DNA of 64,000 bases, taken from NCBI GenBank assembly GCA_000165345.1, contig CM000436.1, positions 1,024,001-1,088,000 of the forward strand. The letters run 5' to 3'. The notes beneath the pieces were generated by a model, which was not told where the DNA came from, ran no database searches, and saw only the letters and a program-made list of their open reading frames with translations. Below, piece after piece: positions 2,319 through 62,277 of the stretch; position 1 is the first letter of the stretch, and each line of letters opens with the position of its first letter. The translations under genes were made by a program, and so were the position numbers.

Positions 2319-4463
2319 ATGGGGAGTGGAAGAAAAAGAATAAAAGTAGAAGAAAATGAGAAATCAATTGAAGTTGATAAAGAATTAAATCCATGGAACA
2401 ATGATAAACCATATTCAAATAAATATTATGAATTAAGAAAATTCAGAAAATCTCTTCCAGCTTGGTCAGAAAGAAAAACTTTCTGTAAATTAGTAAAAAA
2501 GAACCAAGTTGTGATTTTAGTTGGAGATACTGGTAGTGGAAAAACAACGCAATGCCCACAATTTATATTAGAATCTGGATTAGGAGGAAATTTAAAGATT
2601 GCATGTACTCAACCACGTAGAGTGGCGGCAATGAGTGTAGCTCAGAGAGTTTCAGAAGAAATGGATGTTTGTTTAGGTGATATTGTTGGATATACAATTA
2701 GATTTGAAGATAAGACAAATGAAAATACGAGACTTAAGTATGTAACAGATGGAATGTTACTTAGAGAAGCAATGTATGATAATGATTTATCTCAATATGG
2801 AGTAATTATTATTGATGAAGCACATGAGAGAACAATCTCAACAGATATTTTAATGGGATCGCTTAAAGAAATATTACTAAGAAGAAATTTTGAATCAAAA
2901 AATCCTTTAAGATTAGTAGTAATGAGTGCAACATTAGAATCAACAAAATTTCAAAGTTATTTTGGTAATGATTCACCAGTTTTTTCAATTCCAGGAAGAA
3001 TGTTCCCTGTTGAATTAATATATAATATAAAACCAGAAAAAGACTATTTAGAAGCATCAATACAAAAAGTACTTGATATACATGAGAATGAAGCACCAGG
3101 TGATATATTATTATTTTTAACAGGAGAAGAGGAAATAGAGCAGGCAAAACAACGTCTAGAATTTTTAAGTTCACCTTTAGAAGAACAATTTGGTGAATTA
3201 GTAATAATACCATTATATTCATCATTACCTCCATATAAACAACAGAAAATATTTGATAAAACTCCAGGACCAAAATATCCTGGTGGTCCTACAGGACGTA
3301 AAGTTGTAATAAGTACAAATATTGCAGAAACTAGTGTTACAATTGATGGAATAGTTTATGTAATAGATCCAGGATTTTCAAAACAAAAAGTATATAATCC
3401 CCGTACAAGAGTAGAATCATTACTCGTTTCACCAATATCAAAAGCTTCAGCAAAACAAAGAATGGGAAGAGCTGGTCGTACAAGAGAAGGTAAATGTTTT
3501 AGATTATATACTAAAGAAGCTTTTGAATCAGAATTGGCAGATCAAACACATCCTGAAATATTAAGAAGTAATTTAAGTAATGTTGTATTAATTTTAAAAA
3601 GTTTAGGTATTAATGATTTAGTTCATTTTGACTTTATGGATCCTCCAGCACCTGAAACTTTAATGAGAGCTCTTGAACAGCTTTATTTTTTAGAGGCAAT
3701 GGATGATGAAGGAGAACTAACTAAATTGGGAAAACTTATGACGGAATTTCCAATTGATCCTCAATTGGCTAGAATGTTAATAAAGTCATCAGAATTAGGA
3801 TGTGCTTCTCAGATATTATCTTTAGCAAGTTTATTAAATGTACCAAATATATTCTTAAGACCAAGAGATAAATCAAAAGAAGCTGATTATGCAAAATCTA
3901 GTTTTGTTGATCCAGATGGGGATCATTTAACTTTGTTATATGCATTTGAGTCTTTTAGAGAAGTATTATACAAGGATGAGAATAAAGCAAAAAAATTTGC
4001 AAAGGAGAATTTCTTGAATTATAGAGCACTAATTTCAGCAGAAAATGTAAGAAAACAGCTTGAAAGAACTTATCAAAAACATATACTTAATACAGGTAAT
4101 CATATTAATTCTGATAATGATCAAATTTCAGAATCAAAACTTAATATTTCTATTAGAAAAGCAATTACCCAGGGATTCTTCATGCAAGCAGCTTGTTTAC
4201 ATAGGTCTGGGCATTATACTACAGTTAGAGATAATCAAGTAGTACATCTTCATCCAAGTTGTGTTTTAAGTTCAAAACCAGAATGGGTATTATATAATGA
4301 GTTTGTTCTGACTTCTAGAAATTTTATCAGAACAGTAACTAAGATTAGAGGTGAATGGTTACTTGAGATTTCTCCAAAATACTATAATCTTGAAGATTTC
4401 CCGGAATGTGATTCTAAGAAGAAGCTTGCTCATCTTAATTATTTTTCTAATAAAAAATTCTAA
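2319..4463 (+). CDS. PRP43: DEAH-box ATP-dependent RNA helicase, Prp43/DHX15-like
   Basis: 714 aa. Walker A GDTGSGKTTQ, DEAH box IIIDEAHERT, SAT motif, QRMGRAGRTREGKCFRLYT motif VI, then HA2/OB C-terminal region. A short N-terminus before the helicase core favours Prp43 over Prp2/16/22. Confidence 0.88.
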   Translation: MGSGRKRIKVEENEKSIEVDKELNPWNNDKPYSNKYYELRKFRKSLPAWSERKTFCKLVKKNQVVILVGDTGSGKTTQCPQFILESGLGGNLKIACTQPRRVAAMSVAQRVSEEMDVCLGDIVGYTIRFEDKTNENTRLKYVTDGMLLREAMYDNDLSQYGVIIIDEAHERTISTDILMGSLKEILLRRNFESKNPLRLVVMSATLESTKFQSYFGNDSPVFSIPGRMFPVELIYNIKPEKDYLEASIQKVLDIHENEAPGDILLFLTGEEEIEQAKQRLEFLSSPLEEQFGELVIIPLYSSLPPYKQQKIFDKTPGPKYPGGPTGRKVVISTNIAETSVTIDGIVYVIDPGFSKQKVYNPRTRVESLLVSPISKASAKQRMGRAGRTREGKCFRLYTKEAFESELADQTHPEILRSNLSNVVLILKSLGINDLVHFDFMDPPAPETLMRALEQLYFLEAMDDEGELTKLGKLMTEFPIDPQLARMLIKSSELGCASQILSLASLLNVPNIFLRPRDKSKEADYAKSSFVDPDGDHLTLLYAFESFREVLYKDENKAKKFAKENFLNYRALISAENVRKQLERTYQKHILNTGNHINSDNDQISESKLNISIRKAITQGFFMQAACLHRSGHYTTVRDNQVVHLHPSCVLSSKPEWVLYNEFVLTSRNFIRTVTKIRGEWLLEISPKYYNLEDFPECDSKKKLAHLNYFSNKKF

Positions 4464-4890: not shown

Positions 4891-5492
4891 GACTATTTGC
4901 ATTTCTTTTCCTCCAGTCTATTTTATACCTGTAACAATTCAATTAGAATATTTCCTTACATGCATGCAAGTATATGCATGCATTTATGTGGACCAAAAAA
5001 TACACGTGGGAGGGGCAGGGAAAAGTTTGAAAGCAGAAAAGGTAAATTAAATATATAATTAATGAAAGTTAGATTTTAGGATTTTTTTTCACTTTTTTTT
5101 AAATCATTTTCATTTAACGCAAATAAAAAATATTAATTTAAAAACGTAGAAAAGATAAATATTTTAGTTACTTGAATTATACAAGAATATTTACAAATTG
5201 TAAATATGTGAGTATATAATCTTGTATAAAACACAAATCAATGAGTTTGTGAAAAATTATTTTTTTTAATTTGATACTGTGGATATTAACTTTTCTTATG
5301 TTGGATTAAAATTATAAGTTATAGTATGAACAGTGAAGGGAAATATCATCTTTTTGCCTTTTTTCTGTTTTGTTTTTTTAGCGTTTCTAAAATGACCATT
5401 ACTTTAGCAGTATTAAAATAATAGTATATCCTGTCGTAAACAATTTTTAAATAAAGCATAATCAACGTTTTCTTATTCACTTATTTCAATTA

Positions 5493-7298
5493 CTATTGTA
5501 CTCCAGGATATCTTCTTATACCAGGAGGGGGAGGCGGAGGAGGAGGAGGTGGAGGCGCAGCTCCTCCCAAAGAAGCACCGAAAGGTGAACCAGTATTCAT
5601 GGGTGAAGATTGCACTGGATTATTTCCTCCCATCATTGGTGGAATAGAAGTTGGGGCAGAATAAGAAGATGATGACGGAGGTAGTGGTGGTGGTGGCAAT
5701 GTAGAGGAAACTGTTTTTGGAAACCCTGAACCAGAAATGGCATCTCCTCCTGACATATATGATGAGCTTGGTCTGGGAGCTTGTGGGAATAATCCTTGCT
5801 GAGGTTTTGGAGGAGGTGGACTTGTTACAAACTGTGAATTCAAAGCCTGTGAGGGAGGAGATATTGCTGGAGAAGAGGCAGTTACCAGAGGAGCTTTTGG
5901 CATTGGAGGAACCGTTGGCATTGGAGGAGCTGCTGGCATTGGAGGAGCTGCTGGCATTGGAGGAGCTGTTGGCATTGAAGGAGCTGCTGGCATTGGAGGA
6001 GCTGCTGGCATTGAAGGAGCTGCTGGCATTGGAGGAGCTGCTGGCATTGGAGCTGCTGGTATTGAAGGAGCTGCTGGCATTGAAGGAGCTGCTGGCATTG
6101 GATGGAGAGGGGACTTTTGAGAATGAAGACCTTGTTCTGATGGAGAAAAGGCCTGGCCAAAGTGGTGCTGGCCATTGGCAGACAATAGTGGAGGAGAAGA
6201 AGAGGAGCTCTCGCCCTTAAATTGAAATTGGCTTGGAGTCTGGGCTCCAATAGTTCCAGAATTTTGTCCCCCCTGTTCTTGGAGAGAGGGCTCCTGAGTC
6301 GGATGTTGATTATTCATTGCAGATTGGAAGTCATTACTGAGCTCAGAGCCAATATGTTGTTGTTGTTGCTGGTGTTGTTCGTTTCCTGATATATTGGTAA
6401 GAACCTCCCATTTACCTTCCGAGTTTTCTCTAAAGAGAGTAACAACATCCTCTCCACTAGAAGCAGCTAAAACTGTTCCTGTTACACTCCAAGATACCCT
6501 CCAGACTGGCTCATTAAAGTTAAGTACTTGGCTACTATGCCAACCTTGTCCATCAGCATCTTGAGTCCAAATGACTACAATTTTATCATCACCGCAAGAA
6601 GCAATAGTCTCAGCAAGAAGATCTACAGATGGTCTCCAAGCAACATCTCTTACCCACTCAGAGTGAGCAACATCCAAAGTCTGATTCATCTCAGAAAGCT
6701 CCTTTGTTTGTGGATCCTGCTTCCAGATACGTATCTGGTTATCACACCCTCCAGAAACAAGTCTTATAGTTTGGGAAGATGGATTTGACGGTGAATTACC
6801 TACAGAGTTAGTTGCTGGAGCCCAAGATACTGAATTTGCTCCATTTGGGTGTCCAAATACCTGCTTCTTTGTCCAGCTCCTAGTTTCTGGACTATATGAA
6901 CAAACAGCTACCGAACCATCCGAAATAGCACAGGCAAATTGAAGCCCAAAATCCCATGGACACCAACAAACACCATTAATTGAAGATAAAAAATCATCAC
7001 AAGAGTAAACAATTTCCCATCTTGATCTTTGAGTTTCTTTCCAAACTAGAACCTTCTTATCATATGAACAAGAAGCTAATACACTCCCAAATGTGGGGTG
7101 AGCCCAACAAACCTGCCAAACTGGCCCTTCGTGACCTCTTAATTCTGCCAAGAAAGTTGGCTGATCCGTAGAGACATCAAATATTCTTATTGTGTGATCT
7201 GATGATGCTGTTGCCAGTCTACGGCCATAATAATCTAATTGTGTGTCATGCACTGGACCAGTATGGCCAGTATCAAAAGTTCCAATAACTTCCGCCAT
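5493..7298 (-). CDS. SEC13: Sec13 (COPII / nuclear pore WD40 protein) with about 300-aa Pro/Ala/Met-rich C-terminal extension
   Basis: The N-terminal 300 aa align along their length with Sec13 (LDYYGRRLATASSDHTIRIFDV, LRGHEGPVWQVCWAHPTFGSVLASCSYDKKVLVWKE, SGGCDNQIRIWK, WVRDVAWRPSV, VTLFRENSEGKWEV). The C-terminal half is low-complexity PMPAAPS repeats and a poly-Pro stretch. Confidence 0.85.
   Translation of the reverse strand: MAEVIGTFDTGHTGPVHDTQLDYYGRRLATASSDHTIRIFDVSTDQPTFLAELRGHEGPVWQVCWAHPTFGSVLASCSYDKKVLVWKETQRSRWEIVYSCDDFLSSINGVCWCPWDFGLQFACAISDGSVAVCSYSPETRSWTKKQVFGHPNGANSVSWAPATNSVGNSPSNPSSQTIRLVSGGCDNQIRIWKQDPQTKELSEMNQTLDVAHSEWVRDVAWRPSVDLLAETIASCGDDKIVVIWTQDADGQGWHSSQVLNFNEPVWRVSWSVTGTVLAASSGEDVVTLFRENSEGKWEVLTNISGNEQHQQQQQHIGSELSNDFQSAMNNQHPTQEPSLQEQGGQNSGTIGAQTPSQFQFKGESSSSSPPLLSANGQHHFGQAFSPSEQGLHSQKSPLHPMPAAPSMPAAPSIPAAPMPAAPPMPAAPSMPAAPPMPAAPSMPTAPPMPAAPPMPAAPPMPTVPPMPKAPLVTASSPAISPPSQALNSQFVTSPPPPKPQQGLFPQAPRPSSSYMSGGDAISGSGFPKTVSSTLPPPPLPPSSSSYSAPTSIPPMMGGNNPVQSSPMNTGSPFGASLGGAAPPPPPPPPPPPGIRRYPGVQ
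5882..6110. repeat. 18-bp tandem repeat (GCTGCTGGCATTGGAGGA)x~13, coding (PAAPSM hexapeptide) inside Sec13 tail
   Basis: Near-perfect 18-nt periodicity is visible directly. It produces spurious long ORFs in other frames on both strands. Confidence 0.9.
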
Positions 7299-15477: not shown

Positions 15478-18775
<3,298 letters not shown>

Positions 18776-18894
18776 TATATTAAAGTTAAGTTTTACTTAC
18801 TATTAGTTTTCTAATTATATATTTTAATTAGATTTGATCTTTTGACTTTTCTTCTCTTAGAGAGAGAGAGAAAAATGTTAATGTAAATTCTGAT

Positions 18895-20993
18895 TTATTT
18901 TTTAAATGTTTGTGGTAGAAAGGGATCTCTAATTCCAGTATTAGGATTAGTAGGAGTAGGATTGATTCCGNTTCCAGAAGTTGTATGATGAGGATTAACT
19001 CTGACTCCTGAAATAATGGGAGTAGGGTTCATACTCATCATATCAGGAGTGGGTGTAGTAGGATGAGGATTGATTCTGATTCCTGAAACAATTGGAGGAG
19101 GATTAACTCCAGTTCTGGGAGTTTTGGAAGGACTAATTCTGATACCAGAAGCAAAAGACTGGGGATTGGTCCCAGTACCGGAAGTGGTTGTAGGATGAGG
19201 GTTGACTCCAATTTTGGGGATTGTGGAAGGACTAACTCTAACACCTGATGCATAGTTTTGAGGATTTGTTCCGAGTTCAGAAGTAGGTATAGTAGGAGGA
19301 TGAACTCCAATTCCAGGGGCTGTGGGCGGAGTGGCTCTGACACCTGAGGCTGTTGGTGGAGTGACTCTGACACCTAAGGCAAAGGACTGGGGATTGATTC
19401 CAGTGCCGGGAGTGGCCGTAGGGTGGTGACTCACTCTGACTCCAGGAATAGATGTGGGAGGGTTTATTCCAACGCTTGAAGTGACAATGGGAGGATTCGC
19501 TCCAGTTCTGGGAATGACTGTAGTTTGGGGGCTCGCTTTGACTCCAGGAGTGGGTTTGGGAAGAAGATTGATTCCAGTTTCAGAAGCGACTGTAGAAGGG
19601 TTTACTCCAATTCCAGGTGCGACTGTAGGAGAATTCACTCCAATTCTAGGGGAAATTTGAGGGTTCANTCCAACTCCAGAAACGACTTGAGGGTTCACTC
19701 CGATTCCAGTAGTAATTTGAGGGTTCACTCCGANTCCAGAAGCAATTTGAGGGTTTACTCCAGTTCCAGAAACAACTTGAGGGCTAATTCCAGCTCCAGG
19801 AGTAATTTGAGGGTTCACTCCGATTCCAGTAGTAATTTGAGGGTTAATTCCAACTCCAGGAGTAATTTGAGGGTTCACTCCAATTCCAGAAACTACTTGA
19901 GGGTTTACTCCAATTCCAGGAGCAATTTGAGGGTTAGTTCCAATTCCAGTAGTAATTTGAGGGTTCACTCCGATTCCAGAAGCAACTTGAGAGTTTACTC
20001 CAATTCTAGGGGAAATTTGAGGGTTTACTCCAGTTCCAGGTGCGACTGTAGGAGGATTCNNTCCAACTCCAGNANNNNNTTGAGGGTTTACNNNAACTCC
20101 NGAAACNACTTGAGGGNTNANTCCANCTCCAGNANNNANTTGAGNGTTNACTCCNANTCCAGTNNTAANTNNANNNNNAANNCCNACTCCTANNNNTAAT
20201 TNNNNGNTTCANTNNGAATTNCANTANTAANNNNAGNGTTCACTNNNANTCCAGNANCTTCTGCTAAAGATGAAGATGGATTATTTTTATTAGTATTTGG
20301 TTGTTTCTGAATATAATAAGGATGTGAAATAATATTTCTACTAGTTGTTGTAATATTTGAATTCATATTTGAACTTATCTGAGAAGAAGAAGATAATGAT
20401 GAATTTATTATACCTGTTGGAACATTAAGATTACTTGAAATCATGTTATTTTTAACTTGTATTTGATTACCAATCAAATTCTGTAAATAATTTTGTTGTA
20501 ATTGCTCTAATTGTGATTTATTAATTTGTGAATTAATTACCATAGAAGATACTCCTTCATTCATATTATTCATCATCATCAAATTAGAATGACAAATATT
20601 TGAATTATCAACTTGGATAAATTGTTTCTCAAGTCTTTTCGATTCTATTTCTCCTTGTTCCTGTTCCACTTCTTTTACTCCATTTGTTTGTGTTCCAGTT
20701 ATTCCAATTCCTTGATTATAAATAATTGAAAATCTCTTCACATGTTCTGTGAATAATTCTTGTATTAATTTAAAATCTCTCTCTATCAATTTTAAACTTG
20801 TAAATATTTCATCTCTTGGCTTATTTTTTAATTCCTTCAATTTCTCTTTTAATTGCATTAATGGTGTAATATTTGTATTTAAAGAAGATAAAAGTCCATT
20901 CTCATTTTTATGATAGTTAATATTATTATTATCACTCTTATTAATCGTCTTATTTAATGTATCTCTACGTACCTTTTCTTCCCTTCTAATCAT
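18895..20993 (-). CDS. repeat protein: Q/N-rich N-terminal region followed by >25 tandem decapeptide repeats G(I/V)G(V/I)NPQ(I/V)(T/V)(T/S)
   Basis: Track ORFs 20190..20993 and 18895..19968 share frame and strand. They are separated only by an N-rich collapsed repeat region. No signal peptide. The C-terminal part is imperfect repeats. Confidence 0.5.
19600..20260. repeat. 30-bp tandem repeat array (coding), with ambiguous bases
   Basis: Units such as CCAGTTCCAGAAACAACTTGAGGGTTTACT repeat head-to-tail. Ns from 20060 to 20250 show the assembler could not resolve copy number. Confidence 0.85.
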
Positions 20994-28237: not shown

Positions 28238-30886
28238 TTAACACATATCATACATTATCTTTGTGATTGCATATCTTGACAATATCATGCTTGTTCCTAT
28301 TGGATTTGAACTTGTATGCTTGCTTAAAACTCCTTCATCTAATATAAATAAGTTTTCAGCCCCAATCAACTTAAGACAATCTGTCTCTACAACTTGCCCT
28401 ATAGCAGTTGTACCAACAAATTCATTTCCAGGTTTTACATTCTTCTTTATATATTCTCTGATTTGTTCAGGATAAGTTGGAAGTTTTGGAAGAATTAACG
28501 GTAAGGACTTCCATAAACTTGGCTCGTTATTCTTACTTCTATCTTCCCTCTCATTAATGATTGTTTCACCTTTTCTAAGACCAAAAAAATTATACCTTGA
28601 ATCAATTCTATTATTAATTGAAGCTGAAGCATCATATTTCATCAAAGTTATATCATCTTTTTCCTCATCTCTTCGTGATTTATCAAATTTATGCATAATA
28701 CTATAATATGAAGACTGCATTCCTTCATTTTGAAATCTAAATTTATCATGTATTTCCTTCAAATAATTAAATCTACCGTTATTACTTTTTGTTTGATCGT
28801 TAGATAAGTCACCTCTTTTATCAAATATCTCCAAACCTTTTCGCACATTAGCTACCTTTTCTTCCTCTTCTTCTTCTTCTTTCTGATCAATTTCTTGTCT
28901 CTCAGCTTCTAGATTATTAAAATTCATATTTGAATCATTTTCCTTTTCTTTAATATGCCCATAATTTTGATTTTGGCTTGCATAATAAAGTGATATATTG
29001 CTCAAATTACATCTCTCATGATTCATTTCTGTTCCAATTGCTCTTGAAGTACTTGTATAATTATGATTAGAATTACCAAAGTCTGCAAAATTTAAAAGTA
29101 ATTTCCTTTCCACATGGTCACCAAACAAGTTCACTCTTTTATGAGTACTATTATTTGGTACTAATAAAGTAGATATATTTATAGATCTAAATAATCTAAC
29201 GAGTCTTCTAAAGCCTGCCTCCAATATTAATAAATCATTAATATCTTCCAATAGTCCCAACCTTATTTTTGGTCTCTTGTTATTTTCATCCCATAATACC
29301 TCCCCTTCACTATATGGATTTGGAACTCGAATAGTTACACCACGAATTAGTGCTGAACATTCTTTACCGATGTTTTGTTCCGAAAAAACTTCACTAATAT
29401 TATTAGTAAAACCTTCGAATTCTGAAATACTCACAGACTCACAACCTTGTATAATATCATCCCTTTCTTCTTGTTTCTTGCATTTAGCTCCAAACTTACG
29501 CTTTGAAAAGAGTGCTTCCGAGCTAGGAATACGAACATTATCAGTACTTAATCCTCTAAAGAAACCAAATATACTTAGACTAGGATGATCTCTTAATCCT
29601 TTTCCAACATATTCATTTTCAATAATTGGATTTTTTATACCAGGACTTGAAATCTGAATATCTTCTTTACTTCCAACTCCACTTCTTTGAAGTATCATTG
29701 GAGTATTTAATGCACCAGCTGATAATATTATTTTTCCTTTTCCAGATTTGATACAGTATTTTTCAATTTTTGAATAAACTTCTTCTTTCATTCTTGAATA
29801 ATTATACCCTCCAGTTAACCTTTTTCCTTGAATACATTCCGCAAACTTGTCATTTTCTCTTTGATCTTTATCTAAACTTGAAAATATGACTTTATCCACA
29901 TGAAAATTAAGTATCTTAAATAATTTTTTATGATTAACTAATCTTGGATCAATTTTTAAAAGTCTAGTTGCACTTCTTCTTTCAAAACTTCTTCTAAATC
30001 CATAAGTTAAGAATGTATATGGAACATAATGAGAAGATGTGAAGTACTCTGGAGCACCGCTATTGAAAGATTCTAGGTTATTATCTTGATTGGTTGCCAT
30101 ATAATCTTGGTAATATTCATTTTCTACAATATCTGTTTTCCATTCCAAATTGTTATCTCGAATTCCAAATGAACTTACATATCCACTTTCTGTCATTTCA
30201 TTTTCAAATAATGAATCTTCTGGTGCTAAGTCTTCTTCATTTGTATCTCCAACGTGGAATGTTCCTGTTTCATTAAATGCTCTCTCTAAAGCTATTACCC
30301 ATGATGTTCTTACATTTGGTTGTACAATATCTCCAACACTTTTCACAAATTCAAAAGATTCTTGTAATCTTTGTGGATCAAAATTTAAACCTAATGATTT
30401 ATAATATTCTCCACTATATACATCTTCGGGAATAAATGGAGTATTGCCATAACTTGTCTTTCCTCCTTCAATACTTGAATCAAATATCATATATCCATCT
30501 TCAGATGTATATATATTAATATCGTTTTTATCAATGATGGGATTATAACTTGAATTCAATTTTTTATTATTTTCATTATTATTTTTTTTATTATCTTTAG
30601 TCTGTTTTTCATCATTCAATTCATTTTCTTTATATTCTCTTCCTTTATCCACAATCAAAATACTAATTTCGTCCCCTCTTCTGGTATATTTTTCTAGTAA
30701 GCTTCTTGCTGTTATTAGTCCATTTGCACCTGCACCAACAATTATATAATCAAATTTGATACCACTTGGTACTTGATCATTGTCATTGTAGGTTTCAATC
30801 CCATATGTATTTCTTGATTTTAAAATTATTGAAATAATTACCAACAAAATTGTCCTTTTTAATAAAAATATAACAGAAAAGGCCAT
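28238..30886 (-). CDS. secreted GMC-family (glucose-methanol-choline) FAD oxidoreductase with large insertions
   Basis: Signal peptide MAFSVIFLLKRTILLVIISIIL. FAD-binding DYIIVGAGANGLITA. GMC signature 2 GALNTPMILQRSGVG. C-terminal GMC domain GTTAIGQVVETDCLKLIGAENLFILDEGVLSKHTSSNP. 882 aa against about 550-600 typical. Confidence 0.8.
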   Translation of the reverse strand: MAFSVIFLLKRTILLVIISIILKSRNTYGIETYNDNDQVPSGIKFDYIIVGAGANGLITARSLLEKYTRRGDEISILIVDKGREYKENELNDEKQTKDNKKNNNENNKKLNSSYNPIIDKNDINIYTSEDGYMIFDSSIEGGKTSYGNTPFIPEDVYSGEYYKSLGLNFDPQRLQESFEFVKSVGDIVQPNVRTSWVIALERAFNETGTFHVGDTNEEDLAPEDSLFENEMTESGYVSSFGIRDNNLEWKTDIVENEYYQDYMATNQDNNLESFNSGAPEYFTSSHYVPYTFLTYGFRRSFERRSATRLLKIDPRLVNHKKLFKILNFHVDKVIFSSLDKDQRENDKFAECIQGKRLTGGYNYSRMKEEVYSKIEKYCIKSGKGKIILSAGALNTPMILQRSGVGSKEDIQISSPGIKNPIIENEYVGKGLRDHPSLSIFGFFRGLSTDNVRIPSSEALFSKRKFGAKCKKQEERDDIIQGCESVSISEFEGFTNNISEVFSEQNIGKECSALIRGVTIRVPNPYSEGEVLWDENNKRPKIRLGLLEDINDLLILEAGFRRLVRLFRSINISTLLVPNNSTHKRVNLFGDHVERKLLLNFADFGNSNHNYTSTSRAIGTEMNHERCNLSNISLYYASQNQNYGHIKEKENDSNMNFNNLEAERQEIDQKEEEEEEEKVANVRKGLEIFDKRGDLSNDQTKSNNGRFNYLKEIHDKFRFQNEGMQSSYYSIMHKFDKSRRDEEKDDITLMKYDASASINNRIDSRYNFFGLRKGETIINEREDRSKNNEPSLWKSLPLILPKLPTYPEQIREYIKKNVKPGNEFVGTTAIGQVVETDCLKLIGAENLFILDEGVLSKHTSSNPIGTSMILSRYAITKIMYDMC

Positions 30887-31377
30887 ATCTATTTATTTAA
30901 ATATATTAATATATATATTTATATATATTATATATTACTACAGATATCTTGTTTGCTACTTTATTTCCTCTCCTTTTTTTCCATTATATTTACTTAATTT
31001 CCTGACAAATTTGTTTTTCCTCGTTCCCTCATACTTTAATTAATTTAATGCAATTGACACGTAATGATTGCATGCGCATGCAAATTTGCAAGTTGATTTT
31101 TTTCTTTTCATGTGGACAATTTTTTGCATGTGCGAGGATTACATTAGTAAATTTATTATAATTAAAGGCTAAATCTGACTTTTAAGTGTTTTTTTTAAAT
31201 TTCCCTCTAAATTTAAATATTGGAATAATTTAAGAAAAATATTAGTTATTATTATTATTGGTATAAATAACTAATTATTAATTATAATAAGTTGATTATA
31301 TAAAAAAGATTGTCATAATGTCAATTTTACTATTATTAGTACCAAATAGTTTTGTGCCCCACTGTGGAACTCACAAC

Positions 31378-35477: not shown

Positions 35478-36254
35478 GTGAAATTTTAAACAATTTTATT
35501 CTTATTATAATACTTTTCCAACTTAATTCATTCAATCAGATAAATCAATCATTTCATTCCTGTAATTAATTATTAATACTATATATATTCACTAAAACTG
35601 ATTAATTTTATTCTAAATCTAATATTTTCTTTTTCTTTCTGACTTATTTTAACTTCATTGTTTTGTAACTTCATTCCTAAATTTTCTCTTATTGGTATTA
35701 TTACTATTATCTTCCCACTTGCCGCCCATGCAGTTATTTTTCTTTTTTAATTCAATGTGGATAAAAATTACGTATACAACGGTAACCACGTAATTTTTAT
35801 AACATGTATATATGCATGCAATGCAAAAATGCATGGCAAGAGGGGGGAATGAGATGCCTGAAAAAATTAAAAGTGTGATTTTAAGGGGGGTGGAGAAGAA
35901 AAAATGATTAATTTGAGAAAATTTTATAAATGAAACGAAAGAATTAAAGAAAGTGAAAATAGAAGTCGAATTTAAAAGTAAAAAAAAAAAGTTGGTCAAT
36001 ACATGTGAATAAGTAAATATTTCAATTTATTACTGCGGTTATTGTCTAATAAGAAATTTTATTTGTATTAAACTTTCAACATAAAATAAAGTGGATATAT
36101 GCAAGTTGAAGAACAGAAAATAATAATATTACTTAAACAGAAAGAATTTTTCTAAAGTTAATTAATTTTTTAAAAAATCCATTCATAAACAAAGATTATC
36201 AAAATAAATTCTTAATTTATTAAAGTTCTTGTTTACGATAATCTAACATAAATA

Positions 36255-37802
36255 ATGTTTAGAGTAATGGATAGTCAAGTTTCAATCATAAGTTACCTTG
36301 GATTAACTCTAAATATATATATTACCATATTTGTTTCATTAATATGGGCATTATTTGTTCATGGAATGAAGTTATGGTTTGAAATACTATTTGGTGTTTG
36401 GATTTTACGTAGAATTTCCCCATTTTCAAAAATTCTTATTGAAAGATTATACAGATTATTAGGATTAGAGTCTGTTGTTTTAGAAAATAAGGATTTAAGG
36501 GGAACTGTATGTATTGTTACAGGTGGAGCAACAGGTATTGGAAAGAAAGTATCCGAGTTTTTTGTTAAATGTGGAGCAACCGTAATAATTGCAGATATAC
36601 AAGAAAATAAAGGCAGAGTTACAGCTTACAAGATTAATACAAATAACTCCTCTACAGGATTAGCAAGATATATGTATATTGATTTATCTGATGAAAAGTC
36701 CATTCGAAGTTTTGTTAAAAGATTTACATAGTAAGTTTTCAACTTGGATATATTAAGATAAATCCAAGAATGAATATAAATTGATTAAATTATTTATTAG
36801 TGATTATGACAGGCTCGATATTCTTGTAAATAATGCAGGAATTGGATCAGGATCAGGATATAGAAAAGAAGAATCAAATGATTTTGAAAAGTATATTAAT
36901 AAAGTATTTCAAGTTAACTATATAGGAACATTTATTTTAACAGAGTTATTATTACCCATTTTAAAAGTAAGTTTTGAGCAAGGCTTATTATCTCAACTAT
37001 CTGAGAAAATATATATATATGTATATATAATAACTTTTATTATTTGAACTTAGAATACAAAAAATTCAAGAATTGTAAATACATGCTCCCCATTACATAG
37101 ATTCTTTGGTTCTAATTTAAGAAAGATACTTGATTATTCACAAATTTTGGAGACTGATTATTCATATGGAGCATCTAAAGCAGCAATACTCCTTTATACA
37201 CTAAAATTAAGAAGGGATGCAATGGGTTTGACATTCTGTCAAACTTTTCAGACTGATAAAGTTGATGAAGGAGGAAATTATGACAATTTTCCTTGGTCAA
37301 CCTGCGTAAATCCTGGATCTGTAAATACTGGAATATTTCCAAAAGTATTTCCATATAGTTTAATATACTATTTTAAATGGTTCTTACTTGATACAAAAAT
37401 GGTGAGTTTAATTTTCATTCAAATATTTTCAATAATTAATTTTCATATTTTTTCTTATCATTTTTTGATAAAATAAAATTTCACCTTTTATTAATATTTA
37501 AAGGGGTCAGAAACTACCATTTTTGCTTCAATATGCCCTAAAGAGCAAGCAACTTTATATATGAGCCCATATTGGTTACCTGGAAATGGATCTTGGTTTA
37601 TAGATAGATTTGCTGATATATTAAGTAAGTATATTTCATAATTATACTCAACTTATTTATTTAATAATACTATCAGGTATATATGTTGGACCCCACTTCA
37701 CCGTCCCAGATCTAAATGATGATGCAGCTTTATCAGCAGAATATCTCTATGAGTGGACATACAACTATTGGAGAGCAAGTAAAACAAAGGAGGAAATTTA
37801 AA
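36255..37802 (+). CDS. membrane-anchored short-chain dehydrogenase/reductase (SDR), 5 exons
   Basis: Exons are 36255..36730, 36801..36966, 37054..37401, 37504..37624, 37677..37802. Donors are GTAAGT x3 and GTGAGT x1; acceptors are YAG. Splicing restores contiguous SDR motifs: TGGATGIGK, RLDILVNNAG, SRIVNTCS, YSYGASKAA, PGSVNTGI. The track shows three separate ORFs, two of them starting at TTG. Confidence 0.7.
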
Positions 37803-42657: not shown

Positions 42658-43740
42658 TTATACAACTTTTTCACCATTCACAGTAATTTGAGGATTAAAC
42701 CCAAGTGAATCTTTAACAACAACATGTTGGTTTCCTTTGGATTTCAACCAATTAACAACATTAGACTGTACATTTCCTGCCATTTGAATTTGTTTCCTTG
42801 CAATTTGTTCAATCCATCTTTAAATTTTAATAATTAGTAAGAAAATAAAATGATATAAACTTGAAATATAAATATACTACATATACTTACCTTAAATCTT
42901 TTGTAGTAAGTGCAGGTACTCCTAATGAAGAATCTGATAATCCAGTATTTTCTATAGTACCCATATTTTTTGAGAATGTAATTCCACTATTCTTGCAGAA
43001 TATCTGAGTAATTATCAAATAAGTTAATATGATAATTTTGTATAAATTTGAATTAATTCAAATAAATAAAAAAAACTTACAGCTTCTGTCAACTTATTCA
43101 TCATTTCGTTTCTCTCTTCGTCAGACTTTGCACACATAACTACAGGTGATCCATCGAAATACATTCTGAAACATTTTCTGCTATTTTGAACAGATTCCAA
43201 AGGAACCTCAATTTTATTAAGTGAGAAACTTCTTACAAGGCTTTCTGGATTTTTTAGGTCTGTCATAAATAATAAATCATCCTTAGTAATTTTTACTCCA
43301 AGAAGATCGACATCGAAAATATTTCTTGGATCCAAAGCTAAAGCTAATTCACCTGAAATCATTACAGAACAGACAGGATCTCTTGGTGAATCAACTACTG
43401 GCATACTAGTAACAACATCTCTTTGCTTTAATTTATTATTTGTAGCATCATTCATTGCTTTTTGGTAAACTGAAACAGCTGATGAAACTGCTTCACTATA
43501 AAGCTTTTCAGAATCTTTCTGGCTTATCTGGGATTTACCTTCCCCAATTACTGATACTGGTTCGACATTTGCACCGATTATTTTTCTTGCAGTTTGTATT
43601 AAAGTTGTGATTGTACCAGGTAAAAATTGTGGCTCTAATAAACCAAAATCTGATGTTGAACGGGTTAATCTTGCATGAGCATATTGGCTCAATCCTGCTA
43701 TTGATAGTAAATTAATCAAAAAGAAAATTCTCATTTTCAT
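42658..43740 (-). CDS. hypothetical secreted protein, 3 exons
   Basis: Exons are 43740..43081, 43003..42891, 42817..42658. Both donors are GTAAGT; acceptors are CAG and AAG. Signal peptide MKMRIFFLINLLSIAGLSQYAHA. No family recognised. Confidence 0.5.
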
Positions 43741-44397
43741 TATTTCTTTTTTTTTCTAGATTAAACTATATCAAATACTCTCTTCTTTGATTAATAATTA
43801 ATTTTTTTTCTCTGTAGAATATTATTATTATTCTACAATTCCATCCGAATTAATTAATCACAATTTTTTTTTCTTTAGTTATGTGTTATTTTAATTAAAT
43901 TGCATTATAATTAATTTATCGACATTTTTTAATGATTTTTTGGTGCATGTAATTGATGACGTCATTTTTTTTTTTTAAATTGAATTACGTCATTTTATCC
44001 ACATAAATATATACCGGTATTACATACATGCAAAAAATTATTATTCATAATACAATTTTTGCGCATGCAAAAAAAAAATGCAAGTTTGCTAATTTAGTCC
44101 ACATGAAATTGCATGCAAGTTTTTTAAGCTTAAAGAGATAAATAGAAAGAATTAAAAAAAAAATAATTGTTTTTGCATGTATATGCAAAGCCGGTATTCA
44201 ATAAAAGTCAGAAAATGAAAATTCATGCATAAATACATGTAAAAAAAAAATACATTTATGCATACAAGAAAGGAGTAATTCGTGATAATCTAAATTAAAT
44301 CAAAACAAGGGTATTTTCAAAATAATCTTCTTGTTATTTAATATTTAAAAAAATTATCAAATAAATAAAAAAGGTATTTAATTTTGAAAGAAGAATT
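43741..44397. promoter_or_regulatory. divergent promoter densely packed with TGCATGCA-type (ApiAP2-like) motifs plus ATACCGGTAT, TTATCCACAT and TGACGTCA
   Basis: At least 8 GCATGCA/CATGCA copies (44030-44265). ATACCGGTAT at 44011-44020 and 44189-44198. TTATCCACAT at 43995-44004. TGACGTCATTTT at 43954-43967 and ACGTCATTTT at 43987-43996. Confidence 0.5.
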
Positions 44398-45742
44398 ATG
44401 GTGAAATTATCAAATTTAAAAAAGGCTATTTTACTTTTGGGTTGCATTGGAATGAGTAATGCCTTGACAGTTTTTCATTTAACCAATCCATTCGATTTAT
44501 TACAAGGATTGAGTCATGTTAAGCTTGAGAGAACTACAGAATTACCAGTTTCTCATAAAACTTTGAGGTTTTTACAAGAAAAAATTAAGTCATTTTCTGT
44601 TGATGGGGATAATGTAGCAAAAGAAGCTATTCAAGGTATTAGTTCAACAACAGGAGTCAACTTCAAAACTACTCCTTTATCACAAGAAGCTTTTAAATTA
44701 CAAAGCAATACATTATTTGCTGAAGCTGCTGAAAAGAGAAAGGTTGCTAAATATTTACAAGAGCAAAGTGGAATGACTGAAACTGAACTCACACAGGCAG
44801 AAATTGATCCAAAGAAGAATCCAGAAAAAGCTGCTGCTATCACAAATATGAAACGTGCTAAGGTACTTCTTGCTCAGGCTTATATTTTAGAAGGTAAGGT
44901 TTTATATTTAAACAAAAAATTAATAAGGTGAATAGAAGAAATCAAATAATGTATTTATATTTCTATTCCTCTTTATTGACAAATAAATCAGAAAGTTATT
45001 AACTTAATCTTTTCACCCTAATTTAAATTATAATTAATATAGAGGAAGCTAAAAGAATGCAATTAGCTTCCACTAGAAGTGGAAACAACGAAAGCTTTAA
45101 ATGCGATATTCTCAAGATTGGCCCTCTTGCATTTGCTCCAAATAGTGAAGAAATTACTGATATTATGGATGGATCTCTTGGATTCTTGAATGGTAATATG
45201 TTATCAATTTACTACAACTCAGTAAGTTTATTCTTGATTTCTTCTTTTCTATTCAATATTTAATTCATCATTATCATTCTTGAAATTTAAAGATTCCAAA
45301 AGCATCATTTTCATTAGAAAGTATTGAACTACCAGTTCATAATGTTGACGCTGCTCCAGGATGTATTGGCTTTAAATACCATGGAACAGACCAAATTATT
45401 TGTGCTACAGGAAAAGATAGTCAATCTGCATGGATTAATGCAATCACTGAAGCATGGTTTTGCAGAAACTTAGGTTTAGCAGGAACTTTACCATCAATTT
45501 CTGATAATCAGAGTAAGTTTACAAAAAAAAACCTTAATAATTTGAACCTTTATATTCACCTATTATTATTAATAGAAGAAGAAGAACAAGAAGAAGGTGA
45601 GACTGAAGAAAATGAGGAAAATAGTGACAAGAAACAAAAAGAAAACAAAAAGAAAAAGAAATCATCAAGACTAGTCAGATCTTCAGTAAAAACATTCACT
45701 GTCGAATTAGAAGATGGAAAACCAAAAATTACTCAAAACTAA
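44398..45742 (+). CDS. hypothetical signal-peptide protein with PH-like domain and charged tail, 4 exons
   Basis: Exons are 44398..44893, 45043..45221, 45293..45512, 45576..45742. Donors are GTAAGG, GTAAGT, GTAAGT; acceptors are TAG, AAG, TAG. The four track ORFs sit in three different frames and are joined in phase by these introns. N-terminal h-region AILLLGCIGMSNA. C-terminal EEEEQEEGETEE..KKKKK. Confidence 0.5.
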
Positions 45743-58194: not shown

Positions 58195-58840
58195 TTTTCT
58201 ATATTAGTATATATACTTTTTTCGTCATATATATGATTTTTGTTTTTAACTTAATTAACTTATATGTTTACGCTTTATTCTTTTTATTTCAAAGTGAAAT
58301 TTTATGATTTATGTCCAAATTCCTTTCTTTTTTTTTATCCACATTTCAAATTATTAATCAATTATTTAATTACTGGTTGCATGCATGCACGTATTCATTT
58401 TTGCAATTCTTACTACACCGGTATATAAGCAATTGATTTATGTAATTAATGTGGACATTACGTGTCTATTAATAATTACCGGTATACAGTTTAAAGAAAA
58501 AAAAAATGTAAATAGCAAATTGCGGGAAAAAAAATCATTGCAATTATTAAATAATATACAATTATGCAGGAAAATTGAAGGAATTAACAAAACTTCTAAA
58601 ACAATTATATTGCTTTTAATGCTGGTATATGAAGATCAAAAAAACGATTAATTATTATTTTCTTTTATCGTTTACTCTGGAATAGAGATAAGTTGATTAA
58701 CTTCAAGTATTTAAAAATAAATTGTGATAAATTTTAATAGAAATATTATTATTGAAGAAGATTTAATCAATTTAAGTTAATTTATGATTTACAAAGTTTT
58801 TTTAAAATACTGAGGTAATAATTCAGATGAATAAAAAACA

Positions 58841-60136
58841 ATGAAGAAAAATCAATTAGCGTTAGAATTACATAAAAGTGCTAATATAACGGATTTGTCT
58901 GTATTAGAAGATGAAAAAAAGTTGGTAAGATTTGGTAATAGTGGAAAATTAAAACACAGAGGAGAACATTTGAAAAGACCTACGGAGTCAGAAGAATTAG
59001 AGATTTATGAAAAAACTAAAAAAGCTTTGAATTTAGTAATTGATAGAAAACAGGATACTCTTTATCCATTTAAAGAAAGCAAAAAAGAAGCTAAGACTGA
59101 ATTCATAAAATATAGATCGAGTTCCGATACTATTGGATACGATCCAAGGTTTGCTGAAAGAATAATTAAAGTAGTGGAAAGACCTAAAGATCCTTTAGAA
59201 CTTCCTAAATTTAAAAATAGAATATTGGGAGGTACAAAAAGGGAGGAAATGGTTCCTATTTTAAGACCACCATCAAAAAAGCTTACTCAAGAGGAAATTA
59301 AAGAGTGGAATATTCCCCCAAGTATTTCAAATTGGAAAAACCCTATGGGTTATACTGTTCCTTTAGATAAAAGAGTACAAGCTGATACTCGTGATTTAAT
59401 TAATATCTCAGTTAATGATAGATTTGCAACATTAAGTGAATCTTTACAACTTGCAGAGAAGAATGCAAGAGAACAAATTAAACTTAGAAATGAACTTCAA
59501 AAACAGAAGAAAATTAGAGAAGAAATGGAAAGAGAGGAAAAACTTAGAAAATTAGCAGAGTCGTCCAGATATGAAAGAAGTAGCCATCATCTTCTTTCAA
59601 AAATTCCAGAATTTTATCAGGATAAAAAAGAAGGTTCAGATGAAGATAATGACGAATTTGATCATATTAGAAGAATAGAATTAGAAAAAAGGAGAGAAAT
59701 TGAAAGAGAATTTAGGCAGGAAAGAGCAGGGAAAAAATCAAAAACATTACGTGATAGCGATAGAGATATTTCTGAACATATTGCTTTAGGCCAAGCTCAG
59801 TCTGCTAATATTGGGTCTTCTTCTGAGTCCCAGTTTGATGCAAGACTATTTAACAAGGTATCAGGATTAGATTCAGGATTTTCCAATGATACTATAAGTG
59901 TTTATGATAAGCCATTATTTAATACAAATAATTTAAAACATAGAGGATTATATACTTTTGAAGAAAGTAGAGTTGAAGAAAGTATTGGAGGAAGAGTTCA
60001 TGTACCTTCATTTTCAGGTACTGATAATTCCAAAACAGCTCTCAGAACAAAACCTGTTGAATTTGAAAGGGATGAAGATGATCCTTTTGGATTGGATAAA
60101 TTAATTGATTCAGTAAGAAAGGATTACAAAAAGTAA
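58841..60136 (+). CDS. SNW-domain protein (SKIP/Prp45 spliceosome component), probably lacking a 5' exon
   Basis: SNW domain RILGGTKREEMVPILRPPSKKLTQEEIKEWNIPPSISNWKNPMGYTVPLDKRVQADTR. The N-terminal (GYRKGW / FGDGGAFPEI) region seen in orthologs is absent from this ORF. Confidence 0.8.
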   Translation: MKKNQLALELHKSANITDLSVLEDEKKLVRFGNSGKLKHRGEHLKRPTESEELEIYEKTKKALNLVIDRKQDTLYPFKESKKEAKTEFIKYRSSSDTIGYDPRFAERIIKVVERPKDPLELPKFKNRILGGTKREEMVPILRPPSKKLTQEEIKEWNIPPSISNWKNPMGYTVPLDKRVQADTRDLINISVNDRFATLSESLQLAEKNAREQIKLRNELQKQKKIREEMEREEKLRKLAESSRYERSSHHLLSKIPEFYQDKKEGSDEDNDEFDHIRRIELEKRREIEREFRQERAGKKSKTLRDSDRDISEHIALGQAQSANIGSSSESQFDARLFNKVSGLDSGFSNDTISVYDKPLFNTNNLKHRGLYTFEESRVEESIGGRVHVPSFSGTDNSKTALRTKPVEFERDEDDPFGLDKLIDSVRKDYKK

Positions 60137-60417: not shown

Positions 60418-60951
60418 TTATGCTTGTGATTCAACGCTGACACCTCTTCTTAAAGCTTCATAATAAGAGCTTGCAACCCAAGCAGCAAAGTAATCAAATC
60501 CAACAGTAATAATGGAAATAATCAAAACTACAAATGAAAATACTGAGAATCCAAGTCTGATAATTGCAAAGAATATTGCTGAAACAAGCAATAATGAGCT
60601 GATAGTAAGTAATAGTGCTTGAGCATATGCGAACATCTTGGAAGTTGATTCTTGTTTTTGATAAGCTGCAATAAGACCAATAACTCCAACTCCAAATCTT
60701 GCAATTGCTACAATGAGTCCTGGAAAACTCATTGCAGTGAAAATTTGAAAGATTGAAAAAGCCAAAGTAACTGATGAAAGGATTGTCACCACTCTTCTTA
60801 ATGGAAGAGGTCCAACTTTTCCTAATGGGTGTGGAAACAAGAAACCTGAAGCTTTTTCATAGTCTGCATATTCACGTGCTTTATCAATTCCTTGTTGGGC
60901 TGAAGATAAAAGTGATTCACTTTGATTCTTTAAAGTTTCTGCGTATGACAT
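60418..60951 (-). CDS. hypothetical small 4-TM membrane protein
   Basis: 177 aa, four hydrophobic helices, no family recognised. Confidence 0.4.
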   Translation of the reverse strand: MSYAETLKNQSESLLSSAQQGIDKAREYADYEKASGFLFPHPLGKVGPLPLRRVVTILSSVTLAFSIFQIFTAMSFPGLIVAIARFGVGVIGLIAAYQKQESTSKMFAYAQALLLTISSLLLVSAIFFAIIRLGFSVFSFVVLIISIITVGFDYFAAWVASSYYEALRRGVSVESQA

Positions 60952-62277
60952 TTTTCTTTGCTTTAAATATATTAACGATTAAGTTTATTCTAATATAGTT
61001 GAATCAGCAGATGATATATGCTTATATACTGCTTTCTTTTGAGTCTTTTAACTAGTAATAATCTTCCTTTAAGAAGCTTAATTAGCTAATATTATCAGCT
61101 CGAAATTAATTCAAATATTATGTACACTCGTACAAATTTAATTTAATGTTTATTAACTGATTGACTACTCTCTAGTTATCTACTTTTTATCTTGAGTTAT
61201 TTTTTCATGCATGCAATTGCCTGTGGCTTGCTTGCATTATTATTTCAATAATAAAATTTTTATTATTATTTTTTTTATGTGGATAATTTGCATACATGCA
61301 TGCAAACTTGCATTCACAAAAATGTCAGTTTTTCTATACCGGTATGCACAAATTTTTATTATTAATTTTTTTGTCCACATTCATACACATGTAATAATAA
61401 AATTAAACTGATAAAAGCAGAAAAATTTAATATGATTTATGAAATTAAAAAAAAATTTGTTTATGTGGGAAAATATTGGAAAAATAGAAAGATCATATAT
61501 TATTGGATTGAATTAAAATTGATAAAACCATAATTTTTAAGATAAGAAATCATTTTTTTTTAATGGTAAATTGCGATTCGTGGTTTTTGAATTTAAACAA
61601 TACCTAAAAGCTAAAGAAGAAAGAAAGTATATAATAAATATATCTTAAATTATTATAAACAGAATATTATCTCTTATTTTGCAATAATAAGTTTGATAAA
61701 ATAATTTATTTGATAATGTTTTATTATTAACGCAAAGTTAAATAATAATTATAATAATTAATTTAATGGAAAAGAAAGCATTTATTAATGTGGATAAAAT
61801 GATACAATATAATTAATCTGCAAACTTATTTCGTCGAATTAAATTGAATTCAAGTTAATTAAATATTATTAAATTATATGTCATTCTTTAAAGTTTTAAA
61901 AATTGGTTAATTTTTTTTTCCCTAAATATCATGTAAATGGGCAAGATGTTGGACAAGGCGGTAATATTTAATTAATTGATAATCGAATACAAGCTAATAA
62001 TCAAACATAAGAAAAAAAAAATTCTTCTAAAAATAAGAATTAAGAATATAACTTTGTATATTCCAATATAATAAGAATTAGCTTTTAGAGAATTATAAGC
62101 AAAGTTAACTGATGAAATTTGGTGGTTCCAAATTTACTTAGAAAGCTAAAATTATTCCAAATTAAAGAAGAATACAAGAAATTTCTGTAAGAGAAAAAGG
62201 CACACAATAACAAGCATATAAATAAAAATATATCTTTCATTTTGATTAATTTGGGGATCTTTGCTATTTTAATTAAT

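Follow-up and report, generated by a model that had tools for sequence, protein, structure and literature searches.

Two genes on chromosome 8 of Cryptosporidium parvum diverge from a short intergenic spacer in which one short word recurs on both strands, and this arrangement raises the question of whether the spacer serves as a single promoter for both genes and, if so, for which programme of the parasite and through which factor. The spacer (43741-44397, no strand assigned) lies between cgd8_4290 and cgd8_4300 and was analyzed within a window of 64 kb, the whole stretch of DNA under study, to which all coordinates refer. It is the complete ATG-to-ATG gap, since the minus-strand gene starts at 43740 and the plus-strand gene at 44398, and it coincides exactly with the interval delimited in an earlier note made from the sequence. 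The two start codons are divergent and 657 bp apart, within the 1 kb that defines head-to-head genes. The surrounding window has a G+C content of about 28% and long open reading frames, mostly devoid of introns. Its cgd8 numbering was anchored by product names found in published tables, those of PRP43 (cgd8_4100, 2319-4463), a GMC oxidoreductase (cgd8_4230, 28238-30886, minus strand), Nop14 (cgd8_4370) and TFIIS (cgd8_4400); cgd8_4250 (adh_short) and cgd8_4380 (SNW) were also named.

The left-hand gene, cgd8_4290 (42658-43740, minus strand), encodes a 310-aa 'PH domain-like protein' with a signal peptide from three exons (43740-43081, 43003-42891 and 42817-42658). A one-intron model of this gene failed, and the model with two introns (43004-43080, 77 bp, and 42818-42890, 73 bp) gave a spliced translation identical to the annotated protein. 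Exon 1 is 100% identical to that of C. parvum CPHLJ_8g4290, including the residue that separates C. parvum from C. hominis. The right-hand gene (44398-45742, plus strand) also starts with a signal peptide, and a splice model with two introns, at about 44894-45042 and 45222-45292, predicts a single open frame of about 374 aa. Annotation divides it into two genes in C. parvum, cgd8_4300 and cgd8_4310, the second being named 'PH domain-like protein' in a published table. In C. hominis, it is merged into a gene of 377 aa in one of the three assemblies examined and split in the other two, and a single right-hand gene of 325-368 aa is annotated in each of C. ubiquitum, C. felis, C. canis, C. bovis and C. 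serpentis. Two introns would thus be present on either side, as the earlier note had anticipated in calling both genes multi-intron, the left-hand structure matching the annotated protein and the right-hand one being predicted from the splice model. That both products carry signal peptides, another of its claims, is supported by inspection of their N-termini (MKMRIFFLINLLSIAGLSQYAHA and MVKLSNLKKAILLLGCIGMSNA), which resemble classical signal peptides, by the UniRef name 'Secreted protein' of the C. ubiquitum orthologue and by the presence of CGD8_4290 in the 'Signal' keyword list.

The two genes are moreover related to each other. The PH-like part of cgd8_4290 and the C-terminal PH-like part of the right-hand gene share 28% identity over 105 aa (BLASTP, E 2e-12) and are paralogous, so the locus is a head-to-head pair of diverged duplicates. 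A Pfam scan of the first exons of both genes returned no domain at E <= 0.01, and the AlphaFold2 model of cgd8_4290, built on an orthologue alignment of five sequences, was unusable (mean pLDDT 36, pTM 0.32); the designation 'PH-like' is therefore owed to database annotation. A word-seeded search with exon 1 for homology to a Plasmodium crystalloid PH protein yielded 10 matches, all of them Cryptosporidium proteins.

The word that recurs in the spacer belongs to the GCATGCA class, which had been attributed to ApiAP2 factors from the sequence and does correspond to the published AP2_1 motif, both in its consensus and in protein binding microarray (PBM) data. Oberstaller et al. 2013 (PMC3734150) described this motif as BGCATGCAH and reported its over-representation in the upstream regions of 1034 C. 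parvum genes. The spacer contains six distinct exact CATGCA/TGCATG sites (43944, 44027, 44064, 44110, 44174 and 44224), equivalent to seven strand matches, so the figure of at least eight cores put forward earlier was an over-count; four more sites (43901, 44078, 44183 and 44258) match only the pentamer TGCAT/ATGCA. Five of the six agree with the published 8-mer TGCATG(T/C)(G/A), or TGCATGYR. From left to right, the first is TGCATGTA (43944-43951, plus strand), whose aligned site is kept as TGCATGCA in C. ubiquitum and C. canis. It is followed by TACATGCA (44025-44032), which reads TGCATGTA on the minus strand, and by CGCATGCA (44062-44069), which reads TGCATGCG on the minus strand and is trailed by a run of ten A residues and a half-site ATGCA at 44078. 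The longer string GCGCATGCAAAAAAAAAATGCAAG quoted in the earlier note is indeed found here, at 44061. The fourth site is the palindrome TGCATGCA (44110-44117, no strand), kept in C. hominis and C. ubiquitum and present as TACATGCA in C. canis; the fifth, again TGCATGTA (44174-44181, plus strand), is adjoined by a half-site ATGCA at 44183. The sixth, CATGCA within TTCATGCAT (44224-44229, plus strand), has the hexamer only and does not match TGCATGYR. All motif sites are confined to the central part of the spacer (43901-44263), which puts them 135-497 bp away from the ATG on the right and 161-523 bp away from that on the left, and the AP2_1 sites proper are all in non-coding DNA, 169-489 bp from both ATGs and thus within 1 kb upstream of either gene. 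Such a distribution, on both strands and midway between the two start codons, is as expected for orientation-independent elements acting at the DNA level and serving both genes.

A cluster of this kind might in principle be no more than part of a general surplus of TGCATGCA in the non-coding DNA of Cryptosporidium, or an accident of AT-rich sequence. The motif is over-represented genome-wide in non-coding DNA (PMC3734150), and the window as a whole contains 46 matches where 19 are expected. Against this background, 22 of the window's 32 non-coding segments are devoid of sites and the spacer has the most, with a density of 9.1 sites per kb compared with 0.84 per kb in the rest of the non-coding DNA and 0.29 per kb in open reading frames (Poisson P about 2e-5 for the spacer count). 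When the spacer was shuffled 5000 times with its dinucleotides preserved, six sites were never reached, the mean being 0.38. A motif density equal to the intergenic background had been named beforehand as an outcome that would speak against a regulatory role, and the observed density exceeds the local rate about 10-fold. The clusters of the window for which expression data exist adjoin the female-specific genes cgd8_4230, cgd8_4290/4300/4310 and cgd8_4390. Finally, the sites are kept across species whose spacers otherwise share a background identity of 32-68%. Taken with these observations, a generic or fortuitous origin of the cluster appears extremely improbable.

The divergent pair, along with its synteny (fibrillarin ... 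Kri1 ... methyltransferase), is shared by six other species: C. hominis, C. ubiquitum, C. felis, C. canis, C. bovis and C. serpentis. Their orthologous spacers range from 215 to 736 bp and each contains three to six AP2_1 sites. In comparisons with C. ubiquitum, C. canis and C. felis, identity is 76% in motif columns as against 53% over all columns, and none of 5000 block permutations attained the former value. Conservation extends to other words: TACCGGTA is found in the orthologous spacers of all seven species examined, and TGACGTCA in five of the seven, each time with an AP2_1 site about 13 bp away. Among close species, the order TGCATG - TACCGGTA - ATGTGG ... TGACGTCA - TGCATGCA is maintained. 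The C. serpentis spacer, only 215 bp long, still accommodates TACCGGT, TGCATGCATGCA, ATGTGG, CATGCA and TACCGGTA.

Locus identity, motif enrichment, conservation and paralogy are direct observations on the DNA; the stage at which the genes are expressed, the fate of their products, the effect of AP2-F and in vitro binding are known from published work. In a study of macrogamonts, TGCATG(T/C)(G/A) was found enriched in the promoters of 65 co-regulated macrogamont-specific genes that include cgd8_4290 and cgd8_4300 (Hasan et al. 2024, PMC11078545). The cgd8_4300 promoter of that study (S6 File) is 657 bp long, starts with TATTTCTTTTTTTTTCTAGATTAAAC and is identical to 43741-44397 of the window; the cgd8_4290 promoter is given there as 528 bp. 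The spacer is accordingly itself among the promoters from which the regulon motif was derived, and both flanking genes are regulon members. Expression ratios of female over asexual stages, in log2, amount to 9.83 for cgd8_4290, 7.92 for cgd8_4300 and 9.10 for cgd8_4310 (PMC11078545, S3 File), and the three genes respond in parallel to nine compounds (PMC11078545). Lack of co-expression had been set as another possible refutation; with both genes in the 65-gene set and log2 ratios of 9.8, 7.9 and 9.1, the pair is co-expressed, and the proposal of a divergent promoter common to two co-expressed, stage-specific signal-peptide genes is supported.

The same data bear on the programme that the pair would serve. 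The earlier note suggested a secretory or invasion gene pair, a reading under which the genes would encode microneme, rhoptry or dense-granule proteins made as invasive stages form. Signal peptides in both proteins would fit such a role, and in Plasmodium AP2-Sp drives sporozoite genes through the same motif (PMC3734150). Both genes are nonetheless female-specific, female expression exceeding asexual expression 240- to 900-fold, and a list derived from sporozoite hyperLOPIT puts their products in the crystalloid body rather than in micronemes, rhoptries or dense granules: the analysis code of Tandel et al. 2023 (PMC10233709) places cgd8_4290, cgd8_4300 and cgd8_4310 in its crystalloid-body set. 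Crystalloid bodies are organelles of the sporozoite, with proteins that are synthesized in females; they have been linked to oocyst and sporozoite formation. An invasion function is therefore highly improbable, and the note's idea of a stage-specific pair driven by an ApiAP2 factor stands on published data while its invasion and secretory-organelle part is abandoned in favour of female-gamete genes for the crystalloid body.

Which ApiAP2 factor would read the motif is best approached by comparing two candidates. One is cgd2_3490, orthologous to Plasmodium AP2-Sp/AP2-EXP. Its AP2 domain binds TGCATGCA in vitro in PBM experiments, and this factor has been proposed as regulator of the macrogamont set (PMC11078545); it thus combines in vitro specificity with matching expression. 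For AP2-F (cgd4_1110), the evidence is genetic: its ablation lowered cgd8_4290 mRNA (log2FC -0.999), making it one of 16 decreased genes, and cgd8_4300 and cgd8_4310 are absent from the list of significant differential expression (PMC10233709). Dependence on AP2-F is consequently shown on one side of the spacer only, and is 2-fold. As to the motif of AP2-F, a 2025 review classes it as AP2_1-like, in disagreement with the main text of the PBM paper (Oberstaller 2014), which names four other proteins, cgd8_3230, cgd1_3520, cgd5_4250 and cgd2_3490, as TGCAT binders.

The motif could alternatively be read in RNA. The TGCATG words would then act as UGCAUG in long 5′ UTRs of maternal transcripts, where an RNA-binding protein would direct storage or translational repression. 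Macrogamont differentiation is indeed accompanied by translational repression (PMC11078545), and female transcripts have been reported to be bound by maternal RNA-binding proteins. Some AP2_1 sites could even be located inside 5′ UTRs. The sites nevertheless occur on both strands, one being palindromic, so that only about half of them would read UGCAUG in either transcript, and AP2 domains bind the exact word in vitro. They are 169-489 bp away from the ATGs, which would make for long 5′ UTRs by Cryptosporidium standards. Scanned against Rfam at E <= 1, the interval 43000-45200 gave two chance-level matches only (mir-297, E 0.86; SNORD12, E 0.92) and no sign of an RNA family or structure, and on these grounds a non-coding RNA as explanation of the spacer was rejected. 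Because the sites are on both strands and Rfam gave no signal, an RNA-level role is unlikely, and we consider it improbable to a marked degree.

We return to a promoter function and to the other words of the spacer. The first co-motif, TTATCCACAT, which had been noticed earlier and is present at 43995-44004, reads ATGTGGATAA on the minus strand and is 100% kept in C. ubiquitum and C. canis. A second copy, GTCCACATG (CATGTGGAC on the minus strand), occupies 44096-44104, with TCCACAT at 44098, and is only 6 bp from the palindromic TGCATGCA. The palindromic co-motif ATACCGGTAT had been counted twice; it occurs at 44011-44020 (no strand) as the sole copy in the spacer, and the supposed second one is the partial copy GCCGGTAT (44190-44197, plus strand), whose aligned ATACCGG is kept in C. 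hominis, C. ubiquitum and C. canis. A CRE-like palindrome, TGACGTCA, was likewise confirmed; its copy at 43957-43964 (no strand) is the only one in the 64-kb window, and a related ACGT-core word, TTACGTCA, is found at 43985-43992 on the plus strand. In 18 independent macrogamont promoters, CRE/bZIP-type words (TGACGT/ACGTCA) recurred once against 0.72 expected, and TGACGTCA was rejected as a general regulon motif for want of enrichment in this set; it may be specific to the locus. Other ACGT-core words, TACGTGT and ATTACGT, are enriched in 38 macrogamont promoters relative to shuffled sequences.

The two co-motifs accompany AP2_1 clusters beyond the spacer. Across the window, ATGTGGA/TCCACAT and ACCGGT/CCGGTAT adjoin such clusters at six intergenic places, namely the focal spacer, 4959-4992, 31048-31130 (upstream of the female-specific cgd8_4230), 35727-35835, 58338-58485 and 61206-61380 (upstream of the female-specific cgd8_4390). 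Within the non-coding DNA of the window, nine of the 11 ATGTGGA sites are within 100 bp of a CATGCA (11% expected, P 1e-7), as are four of the five ACCGGT sites (11% expected, P 7e-4). An unbiased ranking of 7-mers was performed on 38 independent macrogamont promoters from chromosomes 1-6 (PMC11078545, S6 File), taking the first <=390 nt of each. GCATGCA ranked first (21 of 38 promoters, 1.1 expected) and ATACCGG/CCGGTAT second (8 of 38, 0.27 expected); CATGTGG (10 of 38, 0.48 expected), ACCGGTA (6 of 38, 0.18 expected) and ATGTGGA (10 of 38, 1.1 expected) were also enriched, all relative to shuffling and not to non-female promoters, so that generic promoter words may be among them. Known E2F and G-box words were enriched in the same ranking. 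The three classes occur together in seven of the 38 promoters, for instance in that of COWP8, which contains CATGTGGACAA ... ATACCGGTATGCA ... ACATGCATGCATTCATGTGGATAA.

The co-occurrence of ATACCGGTAT and CATGTGGA(Y)A with TGCATGCA in the spacer, at five other places of the window and in independent female promoters suggests that the macrogamont signal might be a tripartite, genus-wide module made of TGCATGYR, (C/T)ATGTGGA(C/T)A and ATACCGGTAT, often together with an ACGT-core word; we advance this generalization tentatively, as one with a real though uncertain chance of being correct. Literature searches on ACCGGT or ATACCGGTAT with ApiAP2, and on ATGTGG with Cryptosporidium and TGCATGCA, found nothing relevant, and a 2025 ATAC-seq/polycistron preprint does not mention TGCAT; in the literature searched, ATACCGGTAT and CATGTGGA(Y)A appear to have no earlier report as conserved co-motifs of TGCATGCA. 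One of them has a published counterpart elsewhere, the 'unknown' motif A[T/A]G[T/A]GGA.A found upstream of class II oocyst-wall-protein (COWP) genes (Oberstaller 2013), to which ATGTGGATAA at 43995-44004 conforms exactly. COWP genes are likewise female-specific, and COWP8 (cgd6_200) carries both CATGTGGACAA and CATGTGGATAA. The COWP motif was described for a handful of COWP genes with no tie to AP2_1, whereas here it is a systematic AP2_1 neighbour.

The spacer can be placed among systems already described. The macrogamont regulon (PMC11078545), whose motif is AP2_1 (PMC3734150), involves the same word in the same organism and in the same class of position, at most 1 kb upstream, and nothing essential differs, except that the spacer would serve two genes at once and is richer in sites; it has six, compared with at most five and a mean of 1.7 in 38 other regulon promoters (their first <=390 nt). 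With the AP2-F study of the crystalloid-body set (PMC10233709), it has in common the decrease of cgd8_4290 and the presence of all three genes in the set; the effect reported there is 2-fold and concerns cgd8_4290 only, and the paper, in which the word 'motif' appears a single time, defines no cis-element. More distantly, the Plasmodium AP2-Sp/AP2-EXP regulon (PF3D7_1466400) and the Toxoplasma gondii TRP-2 element rely on the same palindromic 8-mer, TGCATGCA, which the orthologous AP2 domains of cgd2_3490 and PF14_0633 both recognize. The target programme has been rewired between these parasites, comprising sporozoite genes in Plasmodium, ribosomal protein genes in Toxoplasma and female-gamete genes here.

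Altogether, the spacer is very probably a shared bidirectional, AP2-controlled promoter for a paralogous pair of crystalloid-body genes, cgd8_4290 and cgd8_4300/4310, expressed in female gametes only. A female-stage ApiAP2 protein, for which the candidates are cgd2_3490, with its in vitro binding to TGCATGCA, and AP2-F, without which cgd8_4290 mRNA is halved, would bind five to six AP2_1 sites (TGCATGYR) spaced over roughly 290 bp at the centre and would activate transcription both ways, toward cgd8_4290 and toward cgd8_4300/4310. The conserved neighbours CATGTGGAYA, ATACCGGTAT and TGACGTCA probably bind further factors or AP2 domains that would tune timing or strength. We infer the occupancy and necessity of these particular sites, and also which factor binds them.

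The proposal of a stage-specific pair driven by an ApiAP2 factor is right and was already in the literature: since the sites of the spacer are the published AP2-family motif, the finding is real and not new, and the rediscovery of a documented cis-element in a documented promoter adds little. What retains interest is the conserved co-motifs and the locus itself as a compact bidirectional female promoter. If the tripartite module is true, it would imply at least one or two further sequence-specific readers, either separate factors or additional domains of the three-domain AP2-F, and the cgd8_4290/4300 spacer would be its densest and best-conserved example and a natural test bed. In practical terms, this compact, conserved and unusually site-rich fragment of 657 bp, belonging to two maternal crystalloid-body genes, is convenient for deciding between cgd2_3490 and AP2-F in vivo, for testing the need for the co-motifs and as a dual-reporter driver. 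How female-gamete and oocyst genes are controlled has a direct bearing on the transmission of a major diarrhoeal pathogen.

The composite module of the female-gamete promoter at 43741-44397, in which an AP2_1 word stands together with its proposed co-motifs, is found in full a second time within the window, at 61206-61380, where two copies of CATGCATGCA are accompanied by ATGTGGATAA, ATACCGGTAT and TCCACAT; this is the sole further exact copy of ATACCGGTAT in the window. The module lies in the spacer separating cgd8_4390 (60418-60951, minus strand) from the TFIIS gene cgd8_4400, which starts at 62278 on the plus strand. cgd8_4390 is an uncharacterised ORF of 177 aa with a published log2 female/asexual ratio of 10.2. 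Related words, namely TGCATGCGCATGCA, CATGTGGACAA and TGCATG, occur at 31048-31130 in the divergent spacer shared by the SF3b3/RSE1 gene and cgd8_4230 (28238-30886, minus strand), a GMC oxidoreductase-like gene listed as female-specific with a log2 value of 6.48.

Three more clusters of TGCATGCA are present in the window, each adjoined by ATGTGGA. The first (58338-58485) also carries two ACCGGTAT words and is located upstream of an SNW/SKIP gene at 58841, and the second (35727-35835) precedes an adh_short gene at 36255. The third (4959-4992) is flanked by two convergent ORFs and may therefore belong to a small unrecognised gene.

Local peaks of G+C content (0.45-0.47, against a background of ~0.28) were observed at 5001-7000 and 18001-20000 of the window, and GC skew is strong at 18-19 kb.

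Other words are over-represented in the 38 macrogamont promoters taken from outside the window (PMC11078545, S6 File). Among those with an ACGT core, TACGTGT is found in 7 of the 38 (0.43 expected) and ATTACGT in 8 (1.5 expected); enrichment also extends to GGCGCC, which is E2F-like, and to TGTGGGG, a G-box. With regard to the ACGT-core words, the spacer at 43741-44397 contains TGACGTCA and TTACGTCA.

On the minus-strand side of this spacer, several public models of cgd8_4290 (42658-43740) orthologues (protein models P0015, P0005 and P0009) miss introns or read through them, including those of C. parvum Iowa II (XP_627318, 238 aa) and C. bovis (244 aa), and that of C. felis (325 aa), which retains intron sequence. 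On the plus-strand side, cgd8_4300 and cgd8_4310 look like a single gene spanning 44398-45742: a GT..AG intron at ~44894-45042 links them in frame, their expression responses are near-identical, and five other species, like one C. hominis assembly of the three examined, have a single protein of 325-377 aa annotated here.
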